A stretch of 64,000 nt of DNA from Gemmatimonadota bacterium (lineage in GTDB: Bacteria > Gemmatimonadota > Gemmatimonadetes > Longimicrobiales > Gaopeijiaceae): positions 14,460 to 78,459 of the forward strand of contig JAOTVA010000005.1 of NCBI GenBank assembly GCA_029863645.1, in the 5' to 3' direction. Below, one piece after another: positions 46,613 to 61,133 of the stretch. The notes below the pieces were generated by a model, which saw only the letters and a program-made list of their open reading frames with translations, did no database searches and was not told the DNA's origin. Position numbers and translations under genes: made by a program. Position 1 is the stretch's first letter. Each line of letters starts with the position of its first letter.

Positions 46613-47338
46613 ATGATGACGACGCAAGCCTCAGCCGGAGCGTATGCTGCCCGGCTGGAGGAGACGCTTCCGATGGTCAGGGACCGGATGAAGCGGGCGG
46701 CCAGCGCTGCCGGCCGATCCGAAGACTCCGTGCGCCTGGTTGCCGTCACGAAGGGTCATCCCGTGGAAGCCATCGACGCCGCGCTCGGCGCGGGCCTGCA
46801 TGACCTCGGTGAAAACCGCGTGCACGAGCTCGATGAGAAGGCCACGGGCCACAGCGGGCCTGATGTGACATGGCACATGATCGGGCACATCCAGGGACGC
46901 AAAGCCCGTCGCGTCGCGGAGTTGGCCGATCTGATCCACTCGATCGACTCCACGAAGCTGGCCGAGCGGCTGTCCCGCATTGCGGTGGAAGACGGCATCG
47001 AGGTCGCGGGGCTAGCCCAGGTGAACACATCGGGCGAGGGTTCCAAGAGCGGCTTCGACCCTGTGGAGGCAGTGGAGCAGATTCATCGAATTGCGGAGCT
47101 GCCGGGATTGCGGATTCAGGGCCTCATGACCATGGCTCCTTACGTGGACAACGACGCCGTTATCGTGGATGCGTTCGCCGGGTTGCGGGACACGCTCGAC
47201 AGGCTTCACGCCATCACGGAGGTCGTCGGTCCCGAGCTGTCGATGGGGATGACGAACGACATGGACATTGCAATCCGCGAAGGGAGCACCATCGTTCGGA
47301 TCGGAACTGCACTTTTCGGAGAGCGAGTGGGGGCCTGA
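46613..47338 (+). CDS. yggS: YggS-family pyridoxal-phosphate homeostasis protein
   Basis: 241-aa ORF with VAVTKGHP (PLP lysine), the HMIGHIQ..K motif, and the fold-type III barrel length. Confidence 0.9.
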   Translation: MMTTQASAGAYAARLEETLPMVRDRMKRAASAAGRSEDSVRLVAVTKGHPVEAIDAALGAGLHDLGENRVHELDEKATGHSGPDVTWHMIGHIQGRKARRVAELADLIHSIDSTKLAERLSRIAVEDGIEVAGLAQVNTSGEGSKSGFDPVEAVEQIHRIAELPGLRIQGLMTMAPYVDNDAVIVDAFAGLRDTLDRLHAITEVVGPELSMGMTNDMDIAIREGSTIVRIGTALFGERVGA

Positions 47339-47339
47339 G

Positions 47340-48134
47340 ATGATCGACCTGACGCCGCTGGATGTTCGGACCAAGCGTGGTGACTTCAAGAAGCTCATGC
47401 GCGGCTACGATCCCCAGGAGGTCGATGTGTTCCTGGAGATGGTCGCAGAGCGCCTGGAGATGTTGACCCGGGAGAACATCGGGCTCCGCGAGCGGTCCGA
47501 GCTGCTCCAGCAGCAGGTGAATTCTCAGACTGGGCGTGAGCAGGCCGTCCAGGATGCGCTCGTGACGGCGCAGGAGCTGCGCGCCGACATTCGTGGACAG
47601 GCGCAGCGCGAAGCGGAGAACCTGCTCAAGGAGGCGGAAACGGAAGGCCGTAGGTTGATCGCCGAGGCAGAGGCCGAGGCCCGCACCAAGCTGCGGACCT
47701 CCGAGCGCCGACTGGACCAGATCGCCGACGCCCTGCAGGAGATGGAGCGCCGCCGCAATCGCTTCCTCACCCACTTCCGCCAGCTACTTGAGCGGGAGCT
47801 CGACGTCGTCCAGGTGGAGGAGGACCGCAAGCCGCTCGAGGAGCAGACGATCGATCTCGACCTCGGCACCAAGTGGGGAGGGGAGGCAGCTGCTTCCGCC
47901 CAGGTCGACCCCGAGGCAACCACCTTGGAAATCCCTGCAGTGGACGGCGTTCCGCCGCCGGACGCACCAATCGATCAGCTGGCTGAGGCGTACCGGCAGC
48001 ACGCCGAGCCCAACACGGCTCCCCCGGCCATGCCGTCGGCTCTGGGCGAAGCCATGCAAGCGGCCCCGCCCGCGCCCAAGGGGCAGAAGCACGACAACCT
48101 GATGCTCTATCTGGACACGGACGACGAGGTCTGA
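47340..48134 (+). CDS. divIVA: DivIVA-domain protein
   Basis: ORF 47268..48134, with the start at ATG 47340. The N-terminal lipid-binding domain is LTPLDVRTKRGDFKKLMRGYDPQEVDVFLE, followed by a coiled coil and a P/A-rich tail. Confidence 0.85.
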   Translation: MIDLTPLDVRTKRGDFKKLMRGYDPQEVDVFLEMVAERLEMLTRENIGLRERSELLQQQVNSQTGREQAVQDALVTAQELRADIRGQAQREAENLLKEAETEGRRLIAEAEAEARTKLRTSERRLDQIADALQEMERRRNRFLTHFRQLLERELDVVQVEEDRKPLEEQTIDLDLGTKWGGEAAASAQVDPEATTLEIPAVDGVPPPDAPIDQLAEAYRQHAEPNTAPPAMPSALGEAMQAAPPAPKGQKHDNLMLYLDTDDEV

Positions 48135-48158
48135 CCGTCCCCCGAGCCATCTGCGAGC

Positions 48159-51100
48159 GTGACCCGCGAGTCGGCTCCCGACCCTGATATGAGCTACCCT
48201 CAGCTTCCCGACGGCCTCCTCGCTATTGAGGAGCAGATGCTCGCCACTTGGCGTGACGAGGATCTGTTCCGACGGACCCTAGCCGAGAACGCGGGGGGCG
48301 AACCGTTCGTGTTCTTCGAGGGGCCGCCGACGGCCAATGGGCGCCCGGGTCTTCACCACGTCATCAGCCGTGCGATCAAGGACCTCGTGTGTCGTCACCG
48401 AGCGATGCAGGGTCGCGCCGTTACGCGCATCGCGGGCTGGGACACCCACGGCCTTCCGGTTGAGATCGAGGCAGAAAAGAAACTCGGCATAAGCGGAAAG
48501 CCCGAGATCGAGGCGTTGGGCATCGCGGAGTTCAATCAGGCGTGCCGCGACTCGGTGTTCACGTTCAAGGAGGAGTTCGAGCAGCTCAGCGAGCGGATAG
48601 GCTACTGGCTCGAGTACTGGCGGCCCTATGTGACACTCGATCCCAAATACATCGAGTCGGTGTGGTGGCTCCTCAAGACGTTCGCCGACCGGGGCCTCTT
48701 GTACCGGGGTCATAAAAGCGTGCCCTACTGCCCTCGTTGCGGCACGGCGCTTTCGTCTCACGAAGTGGCGCTTGGGTACGAGGATGTCGAGGATCCATCG
48801 CTTGTGTTCGTGGCCGAGGTGCTCACCGCGTCGGGCGATCCGGACCCGCAGGGCCGTGCGCTTCTCGCGTGGACCACCACGCCCTGGACTGTGCCGTCGA
48901 ACACCGGCCTCGCAGTGAATCCAGTCCTGGAGTATGCCGAGGTCCGGGGCGACGACCGCCGCTACATCGTCGCGCAGGGAAGGGTGGAGGCGCTATTCGG
49001 GGAGGAGGCCCGTGTCGTCGCGACGTACACGGGGGCCGACCTGGTGGGCTGGCGCTATCGGCGCCCCCTGGAGGTGGTCCCGCTACCGGATGACCTCGGC
49101 AACGGCTGGACGGTCGTGGCCGAGGACTTCGTCAGCGCGTCGGACGGTACTGGGGTGGTGCATATGGCACCGGCTTTCGGGGCTGACGATTACGCGGCTG
49201 GACAGCGGCACGGTCTGCCCATGCTCAACCCGCTCGACGCATCGGGTCACTTCGAGCAGGAAATCGACCTCGTTGGCGGCATGTTCGTGAAGGACGCCGA
49301 CTCCCTCCTCGTCGACGCCCTCCGGGAAAGACAGCTGCTCTTCGATATCAGCACCGTGGTCCACAGCTATCCGCACTGCTGGCGGTGCCACTCTCCTCTA
49401 TTGTATGTGGCGCGCGACACCTGGTTTGCCGCGACGTCGTCGCTCAAGGATGAGCTCCTGGCGGCCAACGATCAGATCAAGTGGCATCCCCCCGAAGTGG
49501 GCGAGGGGCGCTTCGGAGAGTGGCTTCGCGGAAACGTGGACTGGGCGCTCTCGCGCGACCGCTATTGGGGAACGCCGCTCCCCGCGTGGGTCTGCGAAAA
49601 CGATCCGGACCATGTCAGGTGGATCGGGTCACTGGAGGAGCTCGGCCAAGCAGCCGGCGGTCTTCCGGCCGACTTCGACCCGCACCGGCCCTTTATCGAC
49701 GCGGTGCACTTCGATTGCGGCGAGTGCGAGGGGTCGATGCGCCGTACGCCCGAGGTCCTGGACGCGTGGTTCGACTCCGGCGCCATGCCCTACGCACAGT
49801 GGCACTATCCGTTCGAGAACGAATCGGAGTTCGAGGCGCATTTCCCAGCCGACTTCATTTGCGAGGGGGTAGACCAGACGCGGGGTTGGTTCTACTCGCT
49901 TCTGGCCATCTCCACGCTTCTGGGGAACAAGGCGCCGCCGTACCGAAACGTCTTGGTGAACGACATGATCCTCGACGCAGAGGGTCAGAAAATGTCGAAG
50001 TCCAAGGGTAACATCGCCGACCCGTGGGAAGCGATTGGCGACTACGGTGCCGATGCCGTGCGCTGGTATCTGATCACGTCGTCCAATCCGTGGCTACCCA
50101 AGCGGTACGATCCCGAAGGCGTTCGCGAAGCAGCGCGCCGCTTCTTCGACACGCTCTTCAACACCTATCGATTCTTCGCGTTGTACGCGGAGGCCGAGGC
50201 GTGGTCGCCCTCCGACGACGATCCGGCCCCGGAGGAACGCCCATTGATGGACCGGTGGCTGCTTTCGCGTTTGCATGGGCTCGTCGCGGGGGTGTCTTCC
50301 GACCTCGACGAGTATCAGCTCACGCGGGCCTACCGAGTGTTGGGCGACTTCGTCGTCGAGGATCTCTCCAACTGGTATGTCCGCCGGAGTAGGTCGCGTT
50401 TTTGGGGCAATGTCGACGCGACCGACACGCGCGCTGCCTTCCGCACGCTCTGGGAGGTGCTGAGGGACGTATCGCTGCTCGCCGCGCCGTGCATGCCCTT
50501 CTCCGCGGACTGGATGCACCGAGCCCTGACTGACGAGAGCGTCCACCTCCAGCGCTGGCCCGAGCCGCGTGGGGCGAGAGACGAATCGCTCGAGTCCGAT
50601 ATGGATGCTGCCCGAGTCTTGGTGTCCTTGGGTCGCGCCGCTCGTGAGGAAGCCAAGATCCGCGTGAGGCAGCCACTGCGCGCGGTCCAAGCCGTGCTGC
50701 CGGGCGGGAAGGCGTTGAGCCCCGAGGTGCTGGAGGTGGTGCGGGAGGAGCTGAACGTGAAGGAGGTCGGCTTCATTTCGTCGACGGAGGGAATCGTGAC
50801 GCTTGCGGCGCGCCCCAACTACCGCGCGCTCGGCTCCCGCTTCGGCAAAGAAACGAACGACGCAGCCGGTGCGATTCGGGCGCTCAGCCAGGACGAGCTG
50901 GCGAAGTATTTGGGTGGCGAGCGCATCGAGTTCGAGGTGTCCGGGACGGCCCACGCACTGGAAGAGGGCGACGTCGAAGTCCTGCAGGAAGCCAGCACCG
51001 GCCTGCTGGTGAAGGCGGAGGGGGCCTACGCCATCGCTCTCGACCCAACGCTCGACGAAGCTCTTCTGGCCGAAGGCGTGGCGCGCGAGCTGGTGAATCG

Positions 51101-51341
51101 CATCCAGCGCTTGCGCAAGGATGCGGGGCTGGACATTTCGGACCGCATCGAGCTGGCGATCGGTGGACCGCAGGAGATCGTGAGCGCGGCGACCCGACAC
51201 GAGGACTTCATTGGGGGCGAGACGCTGGCGCTGGGAATCTCGGTGGGTGACGGCGCGGCGGGGGCTGGCTATCCGCATGTGCGCGAAATCGACATCGACG
51301 GGACGCCCGCCACCATCGGCCTTCGTCGCTCGGATCGCTAG
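48159..51341 (+). CDS. ileS: Isoleucine--tRNA ligase (long, type 2-like form)
   Basis: 1060-aa ORF with a HIGH-type motif (PPTANGRPGLHHV), GWDTHGLPVE and KMSKSKGN. Confidence 0.98.
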   Translation: MTRESAPDPDMSYPQLPDGLLAIEEQMLATWRDEDLFRRTLAENAGGEPFVFFEGPPTANGRPGLHHVISRAIKDLVCRHRAMQGRAVTRIAGWDTHGLPVEIEAEKKLGISGKPEIEALGIAEFNQACRDSVFTFKEEFEQLSERIGYWLEYWRPYVTLDPKYIESVWWLLKTFADRGLLYRGHKSVPYCPRCGTALSSHEVALGYEDVEDPSLVFVAEVLTASGDPDPQGRALLAWTTTPWTVPSNTGLAVNPVLEYAEVRGDDRRYIVAQGRVEALFGEEARVVATYTGADLVGWRYRRPLEVVPLPDDLGNGWTVVAEDFVSASDGTGVVHMAPAFGADDYAAGQRHGLPMLNPLDASGHFEQEIDLVGGMFVKDADSLLVDALRERQLLFDISTVVHSYPHCWRCHSPLLYVARDTWFAATSSLKDELLAANDQIKWHPPEVGEGRFGEWLRGNVDWALSRDRYWGTPLPAWVCENDPDHVRWIGSLEELGQAAGGLPADFDPHRPFIDAVHFDCGECEGSMRRTPEVLDAWFDSGAMPYAQWHYPFENESEFEAHFPADFICEGVDQTRGWFYSLLAISTLLGNKAPPYRNVLVNDMILDAEGQKMSKSKGNIADPWEAIGDYGADAVRWYLITSSNPWLPKRYDPEGVREAARRFFDTLFNTYRFFALYAEAEAWSPSDDDPAPEERPLMDRWLLSRLHGLVAGVSSDLDEYQLTRAYRVLGDFVVEDLSNWYVRRSRSRFWGNVDATDTRAAFRTLWEVLRDVSLLAAPCMPFSADWMHRALTDESVHLQRWPEPRGARDESLESDMDAARVLVSLGRAAREEAKIRVRQPLRAVQAVLPGGKALSPEVLEVVREELNVKEVGFISSTEGIVTLAARPNYRALGSRFGKETNDAAGAIRALSQDELAKYLGGERIEFEVSGTAHALEEGDVEVLQEASTGLLVKAEGAYAIALDPTLDEALLAEGVARELVNRIQRLRKDAGLDISDRIELAIGGPQEIVSAATRHEDFIGGETLALGISVGDGAAGAGYPHVREIDIDGTPATIGLRRSDR

Positions 51342-51345
51342 CGCC

Positions 51346-52329
51346 GTGGACGCGCCCGGGGAGAAGACGCATTCCCTGACGGTGGACGAGGGCGCGACGG
51401 GCCGCTTGGACCGGTTCATTGCCACCAGTCTCGACCTCTCTCGCACCCGGGTGCAGGGTCTATTGGCGGAGGGCCGCGTCACAGTAGATGGCCGGGTAGC
51501 GAAGAAGTCCGACCCGGCGTCGCCGGGCACGAAGATCCAAGTCGTCGTGCCGCCTGCCCAACCGGTGGACATGCTCCCCGAGGAGATACCGCTCGACGTC
51601 GTGTTCGAGGACGCTCACCTGGCCGTTGTGAACAAGGCAGCAGGAATGGTGGTGCATCCGGCGCCCGGTCACCGCACGGGTACCCTGGTGAATGCGCTGC
51701 TCTGGCGGATGCCGGACATCGAAGGGGTCGGCGGACGACTCCGGCCGGGGATCGTCCACCGACTCGACCGGGACACATCGGGGCTTCTCGTGGTGGCCAA
51801 GACCGACCTGGCACACCGCACACTGTCCGACGCGCTTCGCCGGCGCCGGGTGAAGCGGCTCTACCTCGCCCTCGCCTGGGGACACCTCAAGGAGTCTCCG
51901 CTCACGATTGAGGCGCCGATCGGGCGGGATCGAAAGAACCGTAAGAAGATGGCCGTCGTCCAAGAGGGGCGATCCGCTATGACGCGTGTCCGGGTGCGCG
52001 AGCGTTTGCTGCGGGCCGATCTGCTCGACGTGGCTCTCAAGACGGGACGTACCCACCAGATTCGCGTGCACCTAGCGTACGCGGGGCACCCGGTGGTGGG
52101 GGATTCGGTTTACGGGGACGGTTGGGAGCGCGGGATGGGCGGGCCTACCAGGCACTGGGCCATTCAATTGGCCCGGAGCACCCCACGGCAGTTTCTGCAC
52201 GCACAACAACTCTCTTTCGACCATCCCATCTCGGGAGAGCGCCTGAGCTTCACGGCCCCGCTTCCGCCCGATCTCGCGGAGGTGGCAGCATGGGCCCGGG
52301 GTACCACCGGCTCCCAGAACCCCGCGTGA
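51346..52329 (+). CDS. rluD: RluA-family 23S rRNA pseudouridine synthase (RluD-like)
   Basis: ORF 51211..52329, with GTG 51346 lying 5 nt after the ileS stop. It has an S4 domain and the catalytic HRLDRDTSGLLVVAK. Confidence 0.9.
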   Translation: MDAPGEKTHSLTVDEGATGRLDRFIATSLDLSRTRVQGLLAEGRVTVDGRVAKKSDPASPGTKIQVVVPPAQPVDMLPEEIPLDVVFEDAHLAVVNKAAGMVVHPAPGHRTGTLVNALLWRMPDIEGVGGRLRPGIVHRLDRDTSGLLVVAKTDLAHRTLSDALRRRRVKRLYLALAWGHLKESPLTIEAPIGRDRKNRKKMAVVQEGRSAMTRVRVRERLLRADLLDVALKTGRTHQIRVHLAYAGHPVVGDSVYGDGWERGMGGPTRHWAIQLARSTPRQFLHAQQLSFDHPISGERLSFTAPLPPDLAEVAAWARGTTGSQNPA

Positions 52330-52426: not shown

Positions 52427-54241
52427 ATGTCGGATCTCGATCCCAAGCTGACATTCGATTCCTTCGTGGTGGGCCCGGCGAACCGTCTGGCCTCCGCAGC
52501 CGCGCGTCGTGCTGCCGACTCGCCGGGCACGAGCTACAACCCCCTGTTCCTCTACTCCGCACCGGGTCTGGGGAAGACGCACATCCTCACGGCCATCGCG
52601 CACCAGTCGGCGAAGGGTGAAGCCAAGAAGGTCGAGTACATGGCGCTGGAGGAGTATCTCGAGCGCTTGGAGGGTTCGCTCCAAGCCGGGCAGGGCGACG
52701 GTGTCTACGGTGAACTGGACATCTTGTTGCTGGACGACGTCCAGTTCCTGACAGGGCAGCCCGAGGCTCAGGAGATGCTGCTCAAGACCCTCGATCAGCT
52801 CAGCACCGCCGGGGGCCAGATCGTGCTCGCCAGCGACAGACCCCCTGCTGACATCGACGGACTCGACGCCCGGCTGCTTTCACGGTTCTCCGGGGGCTTG
52901 ATCGTAGATCTGGGACCGCCTGAGTACGAGACTCGCGTCGCCATCATCCTCAGGAAGTCCGAAGAACGCGGACAGACCCTCGAGGATGGCGTCGCGGAAG
53001 CGGTGGCGAAAGCGCCGTTCAAGAACGTCCGAGAGCTCGGCGGGGTCCTCAACAAGATCTTCGCGACGCAGGAGCTCGAAGGTCGCCAGGTCTCTTCGTC
53101 CGAGGTGACCAAACTCCTTCAGCAACAGGATCAGGTCGCAGCCCTGGGGGGCGGTTCCGACGAATTCGGGTCCTTCCTCACCGAGCTGGCCAGCTCCGTT
53201 GCGGTGGTGGTGGAGAGCAAGGAAGAGCCGTGGCGAAAAGCGATACGTGAAGCCATCGAATCCGCTGACCGGCAGGGCTTCCTGGTGCACCGCCTGGAGT
53301 CCCAGTTCGGTGAGACCGAGCCGAAGGGCTGGGAGAAGCTCGTCGCGACGTTCAAGGCCGATCTGCAGCGGCTGCGCGAGATCGACAACGAGTTGGAGCG
53401 CCTGGGCAACCCGTGGCCGGAGGCTGCCCAGGGGGTGCTCATGGACCCCGACCGGCTGGAAGAGGGCGAGGCGTTGCTCGCGTCCGTTCGGGAGCGCCAA
53501 AGGCCCTTCCCGAGGCTCGGTGACGGTCCGCTCCTGCATGACCTTTCGGGCTTCGAGGCCATCGCGTTGAAGGCGGCCGCCCAGTTCGTGGGTGAGGAGA
53601 AGCCCGAGTACAACCCGCTCTTCATGTGGTCGGGGAACGAAAGGGTGGCTCTGACGTTGCTGGCCGCGGTCGGACGCACGTACAAAGAGTCTTTCCCGGA
53701 TCAGCGGATGGCCGTTGCCTCTGTGGCGCACTTCGCGGAGGACTTCATCCGTGCGCTCGCCGAGGGGGTCGCCGGGGCGTGGCGCGAGCGCTGGTGGACG
53801 GTTGACCTCCTGCTCGTACACGGCATCCAGGAGTTGTCGGAAACCGAACGCGCGCAGGACGAGTTCTTCCATCTGTACGAGGCTCTGAAGCGTCGGGGAG
53901 CGCGTATGATGCTCGTGGCCAACCGCGCGCCATCGAGCGTCGAGTCCATCGATGAACGGCTACGCTCCCGCTTCGAAGGGGGTCTCGTGCTGGAGCTGAC
54001 CAGCGGCCAGGCGGTGGACCTGGAGCTTGTCGAGCACGCGGCCGCGGCGGCGGAAGAAGGCATCTTCGTGCCGGACTTGGAGGCAGAAACGAAAAAGGGA
54101 CCGGATACGGGCACGATGGAGCCCGTTCCGGCCGCGCTACCCGAGCCGCCGAGCAAGGGGGGGGCGTGGTTCCCCGGCCCGGAGAACGTGGTCATCCATT
54201 GGCCTCGGATCGAAGAGCTCCTCATTGAAGAACTGGACTAG
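52427..54241 (+). CDS. DnaA-like protein with two tandem DnaA-type AAA+ modules (second degenerate), no domain I and no DNA-binding domain IV
   Basis: 604-aa ORF. Module 1 (aa 8-225) aligns by eye to DnaA domain III: TFDSFVVGPANRLA, YNPLFLYSAPGLGKTH, ILLLDDVQF, LASDRPP, RLLSRF, NVRELGG. Module 2 (from aa 395) reads YNPLFMWSGNERVALT, LLLVHGIQ, DEFFHLYEAL, RLRSRFEGGL, with the Walker A Lys and Walker B acids lost. Confidence 0.8.
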   Translation: MSDLDPKLTFDSFVVGPANRLASAAARRAADSPGTSYNPLFLYSAPGLGKTHILTAIAHQSAKGEAKKVEYMALEEYLERLEGSLQAGQGDGVYGELDILLLDDVQFLTGQPEAQEMLLKTLDQLSTAGGQIVLASDRPPADIDGLDARLLSRFSGGLIVDLGPPEYETRVAIILRKSEERGQTLEDGVAEAVAKAPFKNVRELGGVLNKIFATQELEGRQVSSSEVTKLLQQQDQVAALGGGSDEFGSFLTELASSVAVVVESKEEPWRKAIREAIESADRQGFLVHRLESQFGETEPKGWEKLVATFKADLQRLREIDNELERLGNPWPEAAQGVLMDPDRLEEGEALLASVRERQRPFPRLGDGPLLHDLSGFEAIALKAAAQFVGEEKPEYNPLFMWSGNERVALTLLAAVGRTYKESFPDQRMAVASVAHFAEDFIRALAEGVAGAWRERWWTVDLLLVHGIQELSETERAQDEFFHLYEALKRRGARMMLVANRAPSSVESIDERLRSRFEGGLVLELTSGQAVDLELVEHAAAAAEEGIFVPDLEAETKKGPDTGTMEPVPAALPEPPSKGGAWFPGPENVVIHWPRIEELLIEELD

Positions 54242-54254
54242 GAGCTAGCGACCC

Positions 54255-55871
54255 ATGGCGATCGAAGGCGCACTCCAAGACGTCAGCCTGGCCGATATCT
54301 GTCAGTTGCTGGGCATGGGGAAGAAGACCGGGTGCCTGAGCATCACGGACCGGTCCAACTTCGGGTACATCTATTTCGAGCAGGGACGCATCATCTACGC
54401 GTCCGTCCTCAATCGGCGGGACCGCCTGGGCGAGCTTCTCGTGCGCAACCACGTCATCACGCGCAAAGCGCTCTCCGAAGCCGTCGAGACCCAGAGCACG
54501 GCCAAGGGGAGGCGGCTGGGTGAGATCTTGGTCGATGTGGGCGCCGTAAGCCTGGAGGACCTGCAGCGGTACATCCAGGCTCAGATCGAGGAGGCGGTCT
54601 ACCACCTCTTCACGTGGAATCAGGGGTCCTTCCACTTCGACACCGACCAGATGCCCGACGAGGAGGGCCTCTACCTGGTGAGTATTCCCGCCGAGGCGCT
54701 CCTCATGGAAGGCGCACGGCGCGTCGACGAGTGGAGTCTGGTGGAGAAGAAGATCCCTTCGTTCGACGTGGTCTTCCAGCTCGATAAGAATCCCGACCAG
54801 TCGTCGGAGGACGTCGAGTTGACCAAGGACCAGAAGAAGGTCCTTCCGTATATCGATGGCGTCCGCACGGTCACCGACATCATGGACGAAGCGGGCCTCG
54901 TCGAGTTCGAGACGGGCAAGGCGCTGTACGGACTCATCCAGGCCGGTTTCGTGTCCCGTGCCGGGGAGCGCAGCACTGAGGAGGAGACCGGCGGCGACGA
55001 GGCGCTCTCGCAGCATCTCAACGTCGGTACCGCCTTCTATCGGTCGGGTATGCTGGAGGATGCCGAGCGGGAGTTCGAGCAGGCGATCGCGATCGATCCG
55101 AAGCAGGCGCGGGCGAACTTCATGATGGGCTTGATCGCGTTCCGGCGGGGTAAGCTCGAGGAATCGCTCAAACACTTCGGTGCGATGCCACCGGGGGCGG
55201 GCGACTACTCGATTCATCGGAACACGGCCCTGGCCCTCGAGTTGATGGGCCAGTATAAGGATGCTCTGCGCGAGCTCGACTCAGCGCTCATCGCACGCCC
55301 GGAAGACCATGAAGTTCACCTGGCGCGCGCTGCGGTCCATCTCAAGGCCCGTGACGTGGCGAAAACACTCGCGGCGCTTCGCCAGTACCGAACGTCACCC
55401 CGCGTGAAGAAACCCTCCGCCCGCTACTACGCGTACACGGTCCTGGCCTCCGCAGTGAGTGGTGACCTCGACTACGCGGTCGCGGTCGGTCGGGAAGGGA
55501 TGGGTCACTACCCAGACTCGGGCCCGATCCTCGTCAACACGGGCGCGGTGCTGGAGCGTCGGGGTGAAGTGGAGGCGGCGCAGGCCCTCTATAAGCGGGC
55601 GACCGGACTCAATCCGCCCGCGCCCCAGGCCCACAAGAACCTCGGAGATCAGGCCTACGCACACGGCGACATGCAGGGCGCGCAGGCCCAATACGAGAAG
55701 GCCGTGAAGCTGTCACCGCGCCTCGGGGACGACGTCTATCTGCGGCTCGGTACGCTCGCGTACAAAGGCAACGACCGGGACATGGCCCGCCTCTTGTGGC
55801 GCAGGGCAGCGGACATCAACCCGCACAACGAGGCCGTGAAGGCGAATCTGGAGATGTTCGCCGGCGAGTGA
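54255..55871 (+). CDS. DUF4388 (PATAN-type) domain, tandem MshEN/T2SSE_N-like motif, C-terminal TPR repeats
   Basis: 538-aa ORF. The N-terminus GALQDVSLADICQLLGMGKKTGCLSITDRSNFGYIYFEQGRIIYA fits DUF4388. It is followed by RLGELLVRNHVITRKALSEAVETQ-STAKGR-RLGEILVDVGAVSLEDLQRYIQAQ. The C-terminal half has multiple TPR-like repeats (e.g. AQAHKNLGDQAYAHGDMQGAQAQYEKAVKLSP). Confidence 0.8.
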   Translation: MAIEGALQDVSLADICQLLGMGKKTGCLSITDRSNFGYIYFEQGRIIYASVLNRRDRLGELLVRNHVITRKALSEAVETQSTAKGRRLGEILVDVGAVSLEDLQRYIQAQIEEAVYHLFTWNQGSFHFDTDQMPDEEGLYLVSIPAEALLMEGARRVDEWSLVEKKIPSFDVVFQLDKNPDQSSEDVELTKDQKKVLPYIDGVRTVTDIMDEAGLVEFETGKALYGLIQAGFVSRAGERSTEEETGGDEALSQHLNVGTAFYRSGMLEDAEREFEQAIAIDPKQARANFMMGLIAFRRGKLEESLKHFGAMPPGAGDYSIHRNTALALELMGQYKDALRELDSALIARPEDHEVHLARAAVHLKARDVAKTLAALRQYRTSPRVKKPSARYYAYTVLASAVSGDLDYAVAVGREGMGHYPDSGPILVNTGAVLERRGEVEAAQALYKRATGLNPPAPQAHKNLGDQAYAHGDMQGAQAQYEKAVKLSPRLGDDVYLRLGTLAYKGNDRDMARLLWRRAADINPHNEAVKANLEMFAGE

Positions 55872-56869
55872 TTCGTTCCGCGGCTTCGCTGCTCGTGGTG
55901 GTCCTTGCCTTGGCTCAGGGCCCGCCGCCGCTCTTCGCCCAGATGCCCGACTCGCTCGCCGGCGAGGAGTACCTGACGCGCGCGGGGAGTCGGGCCACCA
56001 TCCATTTTGTGCGCGAGGACTCACTATTGGCCTTGCGCGTCCTCGATCTGATCGACGGGCAAGCGCCCCTGCCCGGGCTTCCGGACTCTTTTCCGTCCCG
56101 TGTGACCGCGGTGATCGCGCACGGTCCACAGGCCTTCGACGAGCTCACCGGCGGCGTCGTGCCCGAGTGGCGGGCTGGTGTCGCGATTCCTTCGGCTAAC
56201 ATGTTCATCGTCCCGAGCGACGAGGGCCGCAGCCTGGTCGACCGCGAGGGCAGGCGCACCCTTCGCCACGAATGGGCGCACCTCGGTCTGCATGCCTACC
56301 TGGGCGATCTGCGCGCGCCTCGTTGGTTCGACGAAGGGTACGCGCAGTGGGTGTCCGGTGGCTTCGAGGCGGGCGAGGCCTGGAGGTTGCGCGTCCTGTT
56401 GGCGCTGGGGCGCGCTCCCCCCATGGACTCCCTCACGTTGCGTTGGCCGAGCGGCCGAGAAGAGGCGAGGACCGCGTACCTGCTCGCAGCGAGTGCCGTG
56501 ACCTATTTGCTGGAGCCGGGGGGAGAGCGAGGGCTCGAGCTGTTCCTGGATCGCTGGCGTGAGCAACGCTCCTTCGACGAGGCGCTGCGGACCACTTTCG
56601 GGGTGACGCCTGGCCGACTCGAGACAGACTGGGCGCGCCACGTGCGTGCGCGCTACGGATGGCTGTTCGTGCTCAGCCATTCAGCACTCTTCTGGGCACT
56701 TCTGGCACTCGTCTTGCTCTTCATGGTGCGCGTGCGAAAGGGACGGAATCGGGAGAAGCTGGCTCGCATGCGGGCGTCGGAGTTGCCCGACCAGCCCGCG
56801 TATTGGGTCGTGGACCAGACGGAGTCCGGACCCCGCCTGCCACCCCCGGGGATATCAGAAAAGCCATGA
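55868..56869 (+). CDS. Membrane-anchored HExxH metallopeptidase-like protein (MA-clan like)
   Basis: ORF 55796..56869. GTG 55868 overlaps the upstream stop. It has a signal-like N-terminus, RHEWAHLGLH plus a downstream FDEGYAQW (candidate third ligand Glu), and a C-terminal TM (LFWALLALVLLFMV). Confidence 0.65.
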   Translation: MIRSAASLLVVVLALAQGPPPLFAQMPDSLAGEEYLTRAGSRATIHFVREDSLLALRVLDLIDGQAPLPGLPDSFPSRVTAVIAHGPQAFDELTGGVVPEWRAGVAIPSANMFIVPSDEGRSLVDREGRRTLRHEWAHLGLHAYLGDLRAPRWFDEGYAQWVSGGFEAGEAWRLRVLLALGRAPPMDSLTLRWPSGREEARTAYLLAASAVTYLLEPGGERGLELFLDRWREQRSFDEALRTTFGVTPGRLETDWARHVRARYGWLFVLSHSALFWALLALVLLFMVRVRKGRNREKLARMRASELPDQPAYWVVDQTESGPRLPPPGISEKP

Positions 56870-58209
56870 GTGACTCCACCCCCCCGCGAATCCTCGTCGT
56901 CGACGACGACGTGGACGGACTCGAAGTCCTTCGCACTCGACTCGTCCATGCCGGCTACGAGGTTGAAACCGCAGAGAGCGCCGAGAAGGCGCTGTCACGC
57001 GTGAAAGCGTTCGACCCGGGGCTTATCGTCACAGACGTGCGCATGTCCGGGATGACGGGGCTCGAGCTTCTGGAGAAGGTGCGTGCCTCCATGGACTCCG
57101 TTGAGGTTGTGGTCATGACTGCCCACGACGACATGCAGACCGCTGTCGCCGCCATGAAAGGCGGCGCCTTCGATTTTCTCGTGAAGCCCGTCGATCCCAA
57201 GGCCGTGCAGGGCCTGGCGGAGCGCTGCTTCCGGGAGCGAGCGCTGACGGTGGAAGGCGGAGAGCCGGATGTTGTCGCCGCGCTACCGCGAGGACGTTTG
57301 GTCGGCCGGGATCCTCGCATGATCGACATCTACAAGACGATCGGTGCGTTGGCCGGCAACCGGGCCACCGTGCTCGTTCGGGGTGAGACCGGCACGGGAA
57401 AGGAAGTCATCGCCCGCGCGATCCACGAGCACTCCGAACACGTCGACGAGCCGTTCATCGCGGTGAACTGCAGCGCGCTGACGGATACGCTCCTCGAGTC
57501 GGAGCTCTTCGGTCACGTGAAGGGTGCGTTCACCGGAGCGACGGGCTCGAGAAAGGGCTACTTCGAGTTGGCAGGGAAGGGGACCATCTTCCTCGATGAG
57601 ATCGGCGATACGAGCCCGGAGTTCCAGACCAAGCTTCTGAGGGTGCTCCAAGAGCGGCGCTTCTACCCCGTTGGAGGGGAGGAGCCGAGGAAGACCGCAG
57701 CGCGCGTGATCGCCGCGACGCATCAGCCCGTCGAGCAGCTGATCGAGGAAGGACGGTTTCGCGAGGACCTCTACTTCCGCCTCAAGGTCGTTGAGATCAC
57801 CGTACCTCCACTCCGCGAGCGGCGTCGTGACATCGAGCTGGTTGCAACGGCCCTGCTCGGCAGGGTTCGCGACGAGACGAGCCGCGATATTCGGCGAATC
57901 TCCGACGACGCGATGGCCAGGCTCATGACGTACGATTGGCCCGGCAACGTTCGTGAACTCGAAAACACACTAATGAGGGCGGCCATCGTGGCGCGTGGGA
58001 CGGTCATCGGCGTCGACCACCTCATTCTGGAGGACGGCGCGAACCCTGGGGGCACGGACCTCACGCTGAAGGGGGCGATCCTGCGGCACGTCCACTTGGT
58101 TCTCGACCGAGCCGGTGGTGACCGCGCGTCCGCAGCAGAACTCCTCGGCATCACGAAGAAGGAATTGGACCGACAGCTCGCGTTGACCGAGGCTTCTCCC
58201 TCCACTTAG
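56866..58209 (+). CDS. Sigma54-dependent response regulator (NtrC family enhancer-binding protein)
   Basis: ORF 56659..58209. ATG 56866 overlaps the upstream stop (ATGA). It has a receiver domain (ILVVDDD...VTDVRMSGM), an AAA+ domain with GETGTGKE, the GAFTGA loop and ESELFGH, and a C-terminal Fis-type HTH. Confidence 0.92.
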   Translation: MSDSTPPRILVVDDDVDGLEVLRTRLVHAGYEVETAESAEKALSRVKAFDPGLIVTDVRMSGMTGLELLEKVRASMDSVEVVVMTAHDDMQTAVAAMKGGAFDFLVKPVDPKAVQGLAERCFRERALTVEGGEPDVVAALPRGRLVGRDPRMIDIYKTIGALAGNRATVLVRGETGTGKEVIARAIHEHSEHVDEPFIAVNCSALTDTLLESELFGHVKGAFTGATGSRKGYFELAGKGTIFLDEIGDTSPEFQTKLLRVLQERRFYPVGGEEPRKTAARVIAATHQPVEQLIEEGRFREDLYFRLKVVEITVPPLRERRRDIELVATALLGRVRDETSRDIRRISDDAMARLMTYDWPGNVRELENTLMRAAIVARGTVIGVDHLILEDGANPGGTDLTLKGAILRHVHLVLDRAGGDRASAAELLGITKKELDRQLALTEASPST

Positions 58210-58522: not shown

Positions 58523-58654
58523 TTTATTGGTAGGGGCCGCCCTATTGCACGGTCTTCCCATCAACGCATACATTCATCTACGTGTCTTCCCCTACGTAGT
58601 TGTAGTGGAAGGCTCAGGAGCTGGTAGCCGTAGTTCACTTGCTCGAGGGAGAGG

Positions 58655-60025
58655 ATGACCATGGAGCACCAAGGTTCGAAGTCCACGCTTGTGGCCGCGA
58701 CACTCGCATTGGTTGCGGTGTTCGCGTTCCAGGGTGCTGCGAACGCACAGGTCGCGTTCAGTTCTTCGGCTGGTGCCGACGACCTGACGTATACCGCCGA
58801 CGTAGCGCCCATCATTCAGCAGAATTGCCAGGTCTGCCACCGGCCGGGAGGCATCGGCCCGATGGATCTGGTGACCTACGACGATGCGCGTCGATATGCA
58901 CGCCGCATCCGTGAGCAGGTCGCGAACCGCCTGATGCCGCCTTACTACTACGACAACGACATCGGCATCCAGGACCTCCAGCACGACTGGCGCCTCTCGG
59001 ATGAGGACATCGCCACGGTAGTCGCATGGGTGGACCAGGGCTCGGTCGAAGGTGATCCGGCCGACATGCCTGTGGCGGTGCTCGCGGACACAGAGGATTG
59101 GTCGCTTGCTGCGGCGCTCGGCCAGCCGGACATCATTGCCCCGTCGACGCCGATCGACGTACCGGCAGCGGGCAACGACATGTGGCATCGCCCCATCGTT
59201 CCGACAGGAATCACCGAAGAGCGCTGCATCAAGGCGCTTCAGGTGAAGCCGGCCGGTAACGCGAAGGGTGTTGTGCACCACGCGAACTCGACGTTCCAAC
59301 TCGAGACCGACGACGGTGGCTTCGAGTCCTCCGGCGACCGTGCGACCGAGTACGCCATGGGCAAGCTCGGCGAGTTGATTCCTGACGGCGTGTGCCGCGT
59401 AATCCCGGCCAACGCCTATGTCGCGTGGGACATCCACCTCTATCCCGGTGGACTCGGTGCCGCGGCCCCGAACGACGTTCTCGAGGACAACGTGGTCGAG
59501 TTGGGCATCTGGCTGCATCCGGCCGACTACGAGTACGAGTACAAGCAGGACCTGGCGCTCTACGGCATCCGCGAGGGCGAGTTGGTCATGAAGCCCCATG
59601 GCACGGCCATGACTCAGGGCTTCCGGACGTTCGACCATCCGGTGCGTATCGATAGCTTCCAGCCTCACGGGCACCTGCGCATGCGCTCGGCGTCCCTCGA
59701 GATCCTCTACCCGGAGACGGGTCGGGTCGAGATCGTCAGCATGGTCTCGAACTGGAGCGCCACGTGGCACCAGAGCCACATCTACGGCGAGAACTCGGCA
59801 CCCTTGGTGCCGGCCGGGGCGGTTCTGATCATGAAGCAGTGGTATGACAACACGGAGAACAACCCGAACGTTGTCGACGCAGATCAGTGGGTCGACGGTG
59901 GCAGCCGCACCGCGGATGAGATGTCTCACGCGTGGATCGCGGTGACGCACCTCGACGAGGAAGGGTATCAAGAGCTTCTCGAGCAGCGCGAGGCGAACGA
60001 GGAGCGTAGGATTACCGACGATTAG
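58655..60025 (+). CDS. Secreted protein: CxxCH heme-c-type module fused to a PHM/DBH-like (copper type II monooxygenase fold) domain
   Basis: 456-aa ORF with RBS GGGAGAGG and a signal peptide. DVAPIIQQNCQVCHRPGGIGPM contains CxxCH at 58826..58840. Downstream are VVHHAN (59276..59281), WDIHLYP, QPHGHLRM (59666..59674) and TADEMSHAW (Met at 59921). This ordering matches the CuH (HH..H) and CuM (HxH..M) ligand pattern. Confidence 0.7.
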   Translation: MTMEHQGSKSTLVAATLALVAVFAFQGAANAQVAFSSSAGADDLTYTADVAPIIQQNCQVCHRPGGIGPMDLVTYDDARRYARRIREQVANRLMPPYYYDNDIGIQDLQHDWRLSDEDIATVVAWVDQGSVEGDPADMPVAVLADTEDWSLAAALGQPDIIAPSTPIDVPAAGNDMWHRPIVPTGITEERCIKALQVKPAGNAKGVVHHANSTFQLETDDGGFESSGDRATEYAMGKLGELIPDGVCRVIPANAYVAWDIHLYPGGLGAAAPNDVLEDNVVELGIWLHPADYEYEYKQDLALYGIREGELVMKPHGTAMTQGFRTFDHPVRIDSFQPHGHLRMRSASLEILYPETGRVEIVSMVSNWSATWHQSHIYGENSAPLVPAGAVLIMKQWYDNTENNPNVVDADQWVDGGSRTADEMSHAWIAVTHLDEEGYQELLEQREANEERRITDD

Positions 60026-60167
60026 GGATCTGTAGCACCCTTCTCGTAGTATGATTTGGTAGCCTTGGGGATCGAAGGACGCTTCGGAAAACGCCGTGGC
60101 TCCTTCGGTCCCCATCGCTCTTTAAGGTCGTCTGCCCGCCTATGAACCAGGGTTTGGACAAGGAGTC

Positions 60168-61133
60168 ATGATGAAGGTTCGGTTGACCGTAGGTGGAGTT
60201 GCCCTCGGGGTCCTTCTGAGCAGCACGCTCGCCGCCCCAGCCCCCTTGAGCGCGCAGGGTCCGGATGGTCGTTGGCCTCTTCAGCCCACGAGTGGGGTGG
60301 GGCGCATCGTGGCGCCGTTCCTCGACGGGTGGTATGAGAACGACGATGGGTCTTACACCTACTCGATGGGATACAACAACTTCAACTCTGACGTGATCTA
60401 TCTCCCTGTGGGAGAGACCAACCTCATCGAGCCAGCAGAGTACAGCGGCATGCAGCCGACGGTGTTCTATCCCGGCAAGGCGCGCGGCGTCTTCACGGTT
60501 ACCGTGCCCGCGGCTCAGGCTGATGGGGACGTCTGGTGGTCGCTGACCAATCCCAATGGCGAGGTCACGAAGGTTCCGGCACGGAACTCCTGGAACGCGT
60601 ACCAGCTGGATCGGCTTCCGCGGCCTCACGGGTCGCTGCCGCCGGCGGTGTGGTTCGACGACGGCAATGACGAGATCGGCAGTGGCCCCGAGGGGGTCGT
60701 GTCACAGCGTACGCTTTCGACCGCCGTTGGATCGCCGCTGGTCGTAGAGGTGGAGGTCGAGGATATCTCCATCAACGATCTTTCCGACGCACGCTTTCGG
60801 AATGGTACCGAGCTTCGCGTGAACTGGGCCCTTTTGCAGGCTCCAGTAGGTGCAGAGGTCGAGTTCACGAGACATGAGTCAACGATGGTCCCCGAGCCGC
60901 CGGCAGGGCGGGGCGGTGATGGTGCCGATCCCGACGGGCCCCCGCGGCGTGGCCCTGGACCCGAGGTCGTCCCGGTGAAGGACGCAGGCACTGCTCGGGT
61001 TATCGCCTCCTTTTCCATGCCGGGCGAGTACGTGCTGATCGGTCAGGTGGACAACTTCCGTCGTCCGGACAGTAACTCGGGCGATCAGTGCTGCTGGACC
61101 AACGCTTATGTGCGGGTGAACGTGACGCAGTAG
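60168..61133 (+). CDS. Hypothetical secreted protein
   Basis: 321-aa ORF with RBS AAGGAG and a signal peptide ending LSAQG. It is predicted beta-rich and has a C-terminal DQCCWTNAY vicinal-Cys motif. I do not recognise a family. Confidence 0.55.
   Translation: MMKVRLTVGGVALGVLLSSTLAAPAPLSAQGPDGRWPLQPTSGVGRIVAPFLDGWYENDDGSYTYSMGYNNFNSDVIYLPVGETNLIEPAEYSGMQPTVFYPGKARGVFTVTVPAAQADGDVWWSLTNPNGEVTKVPARNSWNAYQLDRLPRPHGSLPPAVWFDDGNDEIGSGPEGVVSQRTLSTAVGSPLVVEVEVEDISINDLSDARFRNGTELRVNWALLQAPVGAEVEFTRHESTMVPEPPAGRGGDGADPDGPPRRGPGPEVVPVKDAGTARVIASFSMPGEYVLIGQVDNFRRPDSNSGDQCCWTNAYVRVNVTQ

Follow-up and report, generated by a model that had tools for sequence, protein, structure and literature searches.

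The subject of this text is a gene at positions 52427 to 54241 of a 64,000-nucleotide stretch, here called the window, from a contig of a Gemmatimonadota bacterium of the order Longimicrobiales (JAOTVA010000005.1, assembly GCA_029863645.1). It encodes a protein that carries domain III of DnaA, the AAA+ module of the bacterial replication initiator, twice in a single chain. The first copy is complete, the second has lost its ATP site and its lid, and a conserved helical domain lies between them. We read this protein, at slightly better than even odds (about 0.55), as an ATP-dependent assembly switch with a composite ATP site, which would work with the product of the next gene, a PATAN-TPR protein, in a polarity or second-messenger pathway, and which would not be an initiator. 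An earlier note on this DNA, made from its letters alone, had suggested a mimic of the DnaA-DnaA interface that caps or regulates DnaA filaments, with recruitment to a different function as its fallback, and it is the fallback that the evidence favours.

Two DnaA modules in one chain

The open reading frame (ORF) runs from its start to its stop codon only 97 bp beyond the stop of the upstream gene rluD (pseudouridine synthase), so that room for DnaA domains I and II upstream is excluded. The Pfam model PF00308 (Bac_DnaA; gathering score 23) matched the protein twice (247 bits; 2e-45 at module 1); scanned alone, the first third gave 155 bits over residues 4-161, and the last third 96 bits over residues ~380-522 (profile positions 19-161). 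The two halves also align with one another (BLASTP, E 3e-14, 28% identity). DnaA_N and Bac_DnaA_C gave no Pfam match in the protein at E<=1, and nothing was found in Pfam for the 138 residues that separate the two PF00308 matches. An AlphaFold model built from 72 sequences had a mean pLDDT (predicted local distance difference test score) of 77 for the whole protein, and Foldseek with this model ranked DnaA domain III first (E ~1e-18) and Hda structures next. The order of parts is module 1 (core and lid), the family-specific helical domain, module 2, a disordered spacer and a conserved C-terminal tail, placed in the window as follows.

52427..54241, + strand: tandem DnaA-domain-III gene, 604 residues, ATG start, uninterrupted ORF with stop codon included, two PF00308 matches
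52427..53143, + strand: module 1, residues 1-239, a complete DnaA domain III (AAA+ core and lid) by alignment to B. subtilis DnaA and a confident AlphaFold prediction
52565-52582, + strand: module 1 Walker A, GLGKTH, residues 47-52
52724-52747, + strand: module 1 Walker B, LLLDDVQF (LLLDDVQ is residues 100-106)
52871-52888, + strand: module 1 box VII, RLLSRF, residues 149-154
53024-53044, + strand: module 1 sensor II, NVRELGG, residues 200-206
53165..53500, + strand: family-specific helical domain between the modules, residues 247-358, from conservation across the family and predicted structure
53504..54016, + strand: module 2, a pseudo-ATPase of the DnaA AAA+ core only, without lid, residues 360-530 (PF00308 96 bits; pLDDT 88-95)
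53630-53656, + strand: module 2 degenerate P-loop, SGNERVALT, residues 402-410, in the place of GxxGxGKT
53807-53827, + strand: module 2 degenerate Walker B, LLLVHGI (LLVHGIQ replaces LLIDDIQ)
53957-53983, + strand: module 2 retained box VII, RLRSRFEGG, residues 511-519
54035..54166, + strand: disordered hypervariable spacer, residues 537-580, in the place of the module 2 lid, from pLDDT, length and entropy
54167..54238, + strand: conserved C-terminal tail WFPGPENVVIHWPRIEELLIEELD, residues 581-604, kept in nearly all members despite the variable spacer

Residues 111-336 of Bacillus subtilis DnaA, i.e., its AAA+ core and lid, align to module 1 at E 2e-46, and the core alone, with the lid not covered, aligns to module 2 at E 3e-21. 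In a set of 82 family sequences K50, D103, D104, R153, R202 and G206 of module 1 are invariant or nearly so, and none of the proteins from 81 loci has lost the Walker A, Walker B, box VII or sensor II of this module. The full ATP face of module 1 is kept in the 82 sequences; the position of the B. subtilis filament-interface arginine R202 is occupied there by D or E, and the equivalent of I190, a position that contacts single-stranded DNA (ssDNA), by a non-hydrophobic residue. In the window's protein, module 2 is without P-loop, without the acidic pair of Walker B and without the entire lid, sensor II included. Its R453, R511, R515 and L520 are invariant in the same 82 sequences, in which it also keeps the donor-face equivalents of B. 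subtilis R202 (R453) and H231 (H482), residues whose roles at the filament interface, like those of others in B. subtilis DnaA, are described in PMC6669920. Both arginine fingers (R153 and R515) and the arginines that precede them in box VII (R149 and R511) are invariant as well. At the equivalent of K222, a basic ssDNA contact, modules 1 and 2 carry R and K, respectively, in Gemmatimonadaceae, and Q and T in the window's clade.

Most of what the earlier note had seen in the letters was borne out. The tandem of two DnaA domain III modules is supported by the two PF00308 matches, the mutual alignment and the alignment to solved DnaA structures; the motifs it had quoted (GLGKTH, LLLDDVQ, RLLSRF, NVRELGG, SGNERVALT, LLLVHGIQ and RLRSRFEGG) all stand at the places given; the second ATP site, which it had called dead, has indeed lost its P-loop and its Walker B acids; and the absence of domains I, II and IV held up in Pfam (no match), in hhalign (probability 0.2%) and in a Foldseek search with the middle domain (best E 1.7). 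It had also set beforehand what would undo its idea, namely a module 2 unrelated to DnaA, a frameshift or assembly error that had fused two genes, or a C-terminal DNA-binding domain detected by sensitive searches. Module 2 is DnaA-related at 96 bits, the same architecture recurs in 80 species-level loci, more than 120 full-length homologues exist, and Pfam, hhalign and Foldseek detected no C-terminal DNA-binding domain.

The region between the modules is where the earlier note went astray, having taken it for a charged coiled coil. Residues ~247-358 instead make up a conserved and confidently predicted domain, all-helical in AlphaFold, with a pLDDT of 72-91 in the whole model and of 80 when modelled alone. 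It has no Pfam or NCBIfam match, and alone against the PDB it gave no fold match in Foldseek; a diverged domain IV, tried as a candidate, is ruled out by these results together with the hhalign probability. Because it reaches pLDDT 80 alone, matches nothing in the PDB, Pfam or NCBIfam and has no profile similarity to domain IV, the domain is considered helical and family-specific: as modelled, it is a conserved helical bundle without known relative, neither a coiled coil nor a hidden DNA-binding domain. Beyond module 2, residues 537-591 have a pLDDT below 50, and residues 595-603 form a short terminal helix of low confidence. The spacer between box VII and the tail ranges in length from 35 to 352 residues across loci, and after it, at the extreme C-terminus, stands the tail with its consensus W-F-x-x-P-E-x-V-V-x-x-W-P-...-E-E-L-D, which judging from this pattern is likely a docking peptide.

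Among known families the protein stands nearest to DnaA without belonging to it. Both modules are clear homologues of DnaA domain III (PF00308; structures 8bv3, 2z4r and 1l8q), with E 4e-47 and 8e-22 to B. subtilis DnaA and with box VII arginines in both, and module 1 has both Walker motifs, sensor I, box VII, sensor II and the lid of this domain; however, unlike DnaA, the tandem protein has two modules per chain, lacks domains I, II and IV, and lies in a signalling and not a replication context. Domain IV (PF08299) is missing from a C-terminus that is disordered save for the short tail, and domain I (PF11638) and the linker domain II are missing from a protein that begins at the first residues of domain III. 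Its score on the DnaA equivalog of NCBIfam, TIGR00362, is 335.4 bits and does not reach the cut-off of 343.9, and it comes so near because two domain III matches add up. Hda is likewise a DnaA-derived AAA+ protein without DNA-binding domain, and its key element is an arginine finger for the ATP of another protomer, but Hda is a single module of ~230 residues with an N-terminal clamp-binding motif, whereas the tandem protein has two modules and no such motif. Its similarity to DnaA itself greatly exceeds that to Hda, and it falls outside the Hda/HdaA families (TIGR03420 and NF051883), with 111.3 bits on TIGR03420 against a cut-off of 194.8. The IstB/DnaC/DnaI group does not take it in either (NF038214 40.9 against 200; DnaI 16.8 against 228). 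It aligns end to end with the members of a Gemmatimonadota tandem DnaA-III family, as we define it here: its proteins have the conserved helical domain between modules 1 and 2 and end in a W.WP...EE tail, and a PATAN-TPR gene comes next.

Spread of the family and decay of the second ATP site

A word-indexed search retrieved more than 120 full-length homologues (595-629 residues, 71-100% identity), which where named are labelled "DnaA/Hda family protein" and come from Gemmatimonadota, Longimicrobiales or Gemmatimonadales; the pipelines of the Joint Genome Institute (JGI) label homologues "chromosomal replication initiator protein". When 1.84 billion representatives were searched exhaustively, tandem proteins (480-900 residues, 30-61% identity) made up about half of the 150 best matches. 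A genome scan, with one genome per species and a query alignment of 12 sequences, yielded 595 confirmed relatives; the best 80 of these 595 species-level loci all cover both modules and all belong to Gemmatimonadota. Distant tandem subtypes, including the P0169 and P0418 types, are from Gemmatimonadota wherever the source gives a name. On present sampling, in which many metagenome relatives carry no taxon, the family has so far been found in Gemmatimonadota only. The identical tandem protein was present on three contigs. In the literature we found no description of a tandem DnaA-like protein or of MglA, PATAN or Che systems with a DnaA-like component, and the names in databases are generic. 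The fold and family of both modules were already known; the novelty lies in their tandem arrangement, in the middle domain, in a second ATP site lost by degrees and in the signalling context.

Several relatives differ in form. The closest species-level relative is on the 4.05-Mb contig CAWBNF010000001.1 (L036), with 89% identity in its best segment and an E-value far weaker than those of loci of lower identity; a frameshift in this long-read assembly has probably broken the match in two. Two giant proteins, P0177 (1876 residues) and P0183 (1990 residues), have DnaA domain III modules ~1400 residues apart, at roughly 190-410 and 1600-1920. Fourteen representatives of 340-445 residues (P0179, P0181, P0184, P0186-P0188, P0195, P0198, P0199, P0209, P0230, P0234, P0240 and P0259) have module 1 and the middle domain without module 2, either through truncation at a contig end or as a genuine single-module form.

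The second ATP site has not been lost throughout the family. When motifs were tabulated for the protein from the 81 loci and set against a neighbour-joining tree with a midpoint root, a Gemmatimonadaceae/Gemmatimonadales clade of ~50 loci had, with a few exceptions, a module 2 with GxxGxGKT, DD, a lid and a sensor II-like motif. In a small clade of four loci (L028, L030, L032 and L033) the module 2 P-loop is degenerate, and in the window's clade of 27 loci it is degenerate in every member and differs between members. Column entropies computed within the window's clade were 2.38 bits for the module 2 P-loop, 2.47 bits for the disordered spacer, 0.39 bits for the module 1 P-loop and 0.30 bits for the module 2 box VII, from which it follows that the P-loop of module 2 is as variable there as the spacer. 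Judging from the deeper branches of the family, which keep both ATP sites, the module 2 of Gemmatimonadaceae, with its ATP motifs intact, is the ancestral state. Identity to canonical DnaA domain III is 44-56% for each module, and between modules 1 and 2 it is 27-47%; the duplication is therefore older than the radiation of the family, and the module 2 of the window has evolved fast and is derived.

Genes beside the tandem gene

Neighbours were compared by tblastn over 84 loci, plus three annotated contigs. In 76 of the 77 loci with enough downstream sequence, the next gene downstream, on the same strand, is a PATAN-TPR gene of ~540 codons. In the window this gene and the two that follow are arranged thus.

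54255..55871, + strand: partner gene, PATAN (DUF4388/PatA_N) plus TPR, 538 residues (PF14332 at 3e-40 plus TPRs)
54423-54494 and 54513-54584, + strand: two repeats of the MshEN type, a motif for binding cyclic di-GMP (c-di-GMP), within the PATAN-TPR gene (NF053729)
55868..56869, + strand: Peptidase_MA_2 (HExxH-type) protein with a C-terminal hydrophobic helix (PF13485)
56866..58209, + strand: NtrC-family sigma-54-dependent response regulator (Response_reg and Sigma54_activat)

The PATAN-TPR gene begins 13 bp past the tandem gene, the probable GTG start of the peptidase gene overlaps the PATAN-TPR stop (GTGA), and the probable ATG start of the NtrC-family gene overlaps the peptidase stop (ATGA); because of this short gap and the two overlaps, the four genes are regarded as one apparent operon. 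A promoter scan found no sigma-70-like promoter around it, and sigma-54 sites were not systematically searched for. The NtrC-family protein scores 418 bits on TIGR01818, under the cut-off. In the PATAN-TPR protein, NF053729, an MshE-related c-di-GMP-binding motif, matched residues 57-110 with 48.9 bits against a cut-off of 38. The motif is a tandem of 24-residue units, RLGxx(L/V/I)(L/V/I)xxG(L/V/I)(L/V/I)xxxxLxxxLxxQ; the repeats (RLGxxLV...Q) sit in a helical insertion of the PATAN domain, the first has H for the motif glycine, and a loose version of the motif is present in 67 of 85 sources. These matches suggest that the PATAN-TPR partner is a c-di-GMP receptor.

Two types of locus were recognised. 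In the window's clade the order is ileS, rluD, tandem gene, PATAN-TPR, peptidase and NtrC-family response regulator, and most of the clade's loci have the last of these in this place. In the Gemmatimonadaceae type the tandem gene is embedded in a far longer series: upstream come rluD, CheW, CheY, CheA, CheC, a large TPR protein, a PATAN protein, TPR-Roadblock, Roadblock, a hypothetical protein and a small GTPase, then the tandem gene and PATAN-TPR, and downstream CheR, CheD, CheB, CheW, CheW, a TPR protein and the peptidase. The Peptidase_MA_2 gene is thus kept downstream of the tandem/PATAN-TPR pair in both types. With E 7e-75 to Myxococcus xanthus MglA over its full length, the small GTPase is recognised as a true MglA. 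In 50 of 79 loci mglA is the gene directly upstream of the tandem gene, no further off than 0.5 kb. At one locus (L032) the MglA/Roadblock part is present and the Che genes are not, and in the window's own clade MglA and Che genes are both missing at this locus. MglA and MglB genes are known as neighbours of PATAN genes (PMC4316618), and in cyanobacteria PATAN response regulators link Che-like systems to the PilB1 motor ATPase (PMC7690835); the Gemmatimonadaceae neighbours are likewise MglA, Roadblock/LC7, PATAN, TPR and Che, but no DnaA-like or AAA+ component was found reported in those systems.

PatA_N genes are also near the tandem gene in two distant tandem subfamilies. One Logan contig (SRR10018917_134922, L086) has a distant tandem DnaA-like gene (P0420, 685 residues) in a different neighbourhood, made up of a REC-PATAN-REC protein, an amidase, an 817-residue unknown protein, a PAS protein and a 732-residue TPR protein, and this contig suggests that the PATAN/TPR link to the tandem AAA+ protein spans more than one gene arrangement.

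The nearest surroundings of the tandem gene held nothing of replication. Over the 84 loci neither dnaA nor dnaN nor a gene with domain IV ever adjoined it, and no DnaA domain IV was encoded anywhere in the window or those loci. No origin-like turn in GC skew was present, cumulative GC skew rising monotonically across the window (DnaA boxes were not searched for), and in large assembled contigs and chromosomes the tandem gene is far from position 1. A regular-expression search of the window protein and four family members found no beta-clamp-binding motif of the QL[SD]LF or QLSLPL type. Cluster look-ups of relatives of canonical length returned no Gemmatimonadota names. DnaA is near-universal in bacteria, and its coexistence with the tandem protein in the same genomes is presumed on that ground.

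Some further features of these loci may be recorded. The cluster of Che, MglA, two Roadblock/LC7, two PATAN and several TPR genes is laid out at positions 1-19421 of L001, from the Gemmatimonadaceae contig JBJMNO010000001.1, with the same layout in ~50 loci (L028-L084), and no gene for a methyl-accepting chemotaxis protein was seen within 10 kb of it; from its gene content it looks like a polarity system of the Frz/MglAB type, of which we found no description in Gemmatimonadota. Upstream of the tandem gene, window positions 46613-52329 hold yggS (Ala_racemase_N), divIVA, ileS and rluD, an order kept in the window's clade (L002-L027) and similar to that at the distal end of the division-gene clusters of other phyla. 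Downstream of the operon are ORFs at 58592-60115 (- strand) and 60168-61133 (+ strand) without Pfam match; a 456-residue ORF at 58655-60025 on the opposite strand overlaps the first of these, and the coding strand is ambiguous there.

The proposed switch and its rivals

In the mechanism that we propose, module 1 would supply the ATP-binding face (P-loop, Walker B, sensor II and lid) and module 2 the canonical donor face, i.e., the arginine finger R515 together with R453 and H482. Donation of R515 to the ATP bound by module 1 would create a single composite site of the DnaA-DnaA type, and the modules probably form one composite catalytic interface, whether intramolecular or between chains. The part of module 2 would in that case be like that of delta-prime, a clamp-loader subunit and AAA+-like stator that donates an arginine finger without binding ATP itself. 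The likeness would be one of logic, with a degenerate AAA+ fold retained on account of its donor face and finger; delta-prime belongs to a different AAA+ clade, without family-level homology, and the tandem protein, unlike it, fuses donor and acceptor in one chain. Two AAA+ modules per polypeptide, often with one weakly active or inactive, are likewise found in p97/Cdc48, NSF and Rix7, but these are proteins of the classic clade that form stacked closed rings, whereas the tandem protein has initiator-clade modules held apart by a 110-residue helical separator, and the Foldseek comparison with them was weak (template modelling score ~0.2, root-mean-square deviation ~20 A). Like other initiator-clade AAA+ proteins, the tandem protein would be an ATP-dependent assembly switch and not a motor. 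Its tail or middle domain may dock on the TPR or PATAN partner, through which c-di-GMP input would arrive, joined in Gemmatimonadaceae by inputs from MglA and Che, and from this setting we infer an output in motility, polarity or surface behaviour. The pathway in Gemmatimonadaceae would comprise the MglA GTPase, Roadblock proteins and the Che system, and in the window's clade it would have been reduced to the four-gene operon with its membrane HExxH peptidase-like protein and sigma-54 response regulator.

A number of observations sit uneasily with the switch. The tie of the tandem protein to PATAN-TPR, MglA and c-di-GMP is one of gene adjacency only, though strong, and the AlphaFold model of the whole protein has a predicted template modelling score (pTM) of only 0.46. 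For a protein gone from replication, an identity of 44-56% to canonical DnaA domain III is unusually close, and the module 2 of Gemmatimonadaceae keeps the ssDNA-binding equivalents of I190 and K222. R153 of module 1 is invariant even where module 2 is without ATP site, which is not explained by a purely intramolecular, single-site model and would call for higher oligomers or another ATP-bound partner, possibly DnaA. Finally, loss of the module 2 ATP site tracks loss of the Mgl and Che genes imperfectly. Perfect coupling of the two is ruled out by the small clade of four, in which the P-loop is dead yet MglA is present, with Che genes too in L028, L030 and L033, not in L032.

Some of these observations speak for a regulator of DnaA, in which the tandem would mimic a DnaA-DnaA pair and cap filaments, or would insert the arginine finger of module 2 into DnaA-ATP in the manner of Hda to trigger hydrolysis, with the neighbouring signalling proteins perhaps controlling its activity. 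Its modules are as close to canonical DnaA as canonical DnaAs are between phyla; module 2 keeps the donor-face equivalents of R202, H231, R260, R264 and L269 and module 1 the canonical acceptor (ATP) face; the invariant finger of module 1 has no partner site in the window's own protein; and Hda structures follow directly upon DnaA in the Foldseek ranking. However, 111 bits on TIGR03420 is well short of 194.8, the clamp-binding motif is absent, module 1 has D or E where a filament-forming DnaA needs R202, and the window's clade has lost the K222-type ssDNA contact in both modules (Q and T). The neighbours add to this, with dnaA, dnaN or a domain IV gene beside the tandem gene at none of the 84 loci, PATAN-TPR next to it in 76 of 77 and MglA/Che often near. 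Since its context is PATAN-TPR and MglA/Roadblock/Che, with no dnaA, dnaN or origin-like feature and no clamp motif, regulation of DnaA filaments is the less likely account, one that we hold as a tentative possibility. The two ideas could also meet, with the tandem protein as the point at which a polarity or second-messenger pathway acts directly on replication, a pathway of MglA, Roadblock and Che in Gemmatimonadaceae and of the PATAN-TPR protein, as putative c-di-GMP binder, in all members. The donor face of module 2 and the ATP face of module 1 would then dock on genuine DnaA filaments to cap or discharge them. We regard this as doubtful.

Very improbable is an initiator, or second initiator, that would find its origin through the middle domain or a partner protein. 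The score of 335.4 bits, barely under the 343.9 of TIGR00362, and the JGI label "chromosomal replication initiator protein" would suit it, but that score adds up two domain III matches, the protein has neither domain I nor domain IV, an origin-like turn of GC skew is missing, as is a dnaN close by, large contigs and chromosomes have the gene well away from position 1, and DnaA is near-universal in bacteria already. The loss of catalytic motifs and lid from module 2 might also have betrayed a frameshift or assembly fusion, or a pseudogenised duplicate in decay; against this stand a single ORF of 580-700 residues that recurs in 80 genomes at species level and on hundreds of contigs from metagenomes, clear purifying selection on box VII, the module 2 core, the middle domain and the tail, and the identical protein on three contigs, and conservation of this kind refutes an artefact or decaying gene. 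An ATPase of a mobile element (the IstB/DnaC helper type) or of anti-phage defence has equally negligible odds. The weak matches that brought it up (IstB_IS21 at 28.8 bits, models of IS21 helpers and of DnaI, PADLOC mad8 at E 5e-4) overlap the AAA+ core and are dwarfed by the 247 bits of Bac_DnaA, the NCBIfam scores are far under their cut-offs, and throughout the phylum the locus keeps its synteny, with rluD on one side, the peptidase gene on the other and no transposase or phage genes; synteny and scores effectively refute it.

To our knowledge, the normal role of DnaA domain III is bound up with the opening of origins, and the only well-known derivative without DNA-binding domain is the single-module Hda. 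Here the same domain has been duplicated, fused and relocated to a signalling neighbourhood of MglA, Roadblock, Che, PATAN and a c-di-GMP motif. The family offers a natural series, from lineages with both ATP sites intact to lineages in which module 2 appears reduced to an arginine-finger donor, and thereby a clean evolutionary example of how a pseudo-ATPase may originate inside an AAA+ pair. There is also a practical side, as TIGR00362 serves as a phylogenomic marker as well, and a score just under its threshold, together with the JGI naming of homologues as DnaA, brings a risk of mis-annotation and of a double-counted marker gene in Gemmatimonadota genomes. The tandem protein is a candidate for a new component of bacterial polarity and c-di-GMP pathways, and it raises the testable possibility of a direct link between these pathways and the control of replication; if such coupling were true, initiation in this phylum, which has budding species among its members, would come under the control of cell polarity or surface signals.

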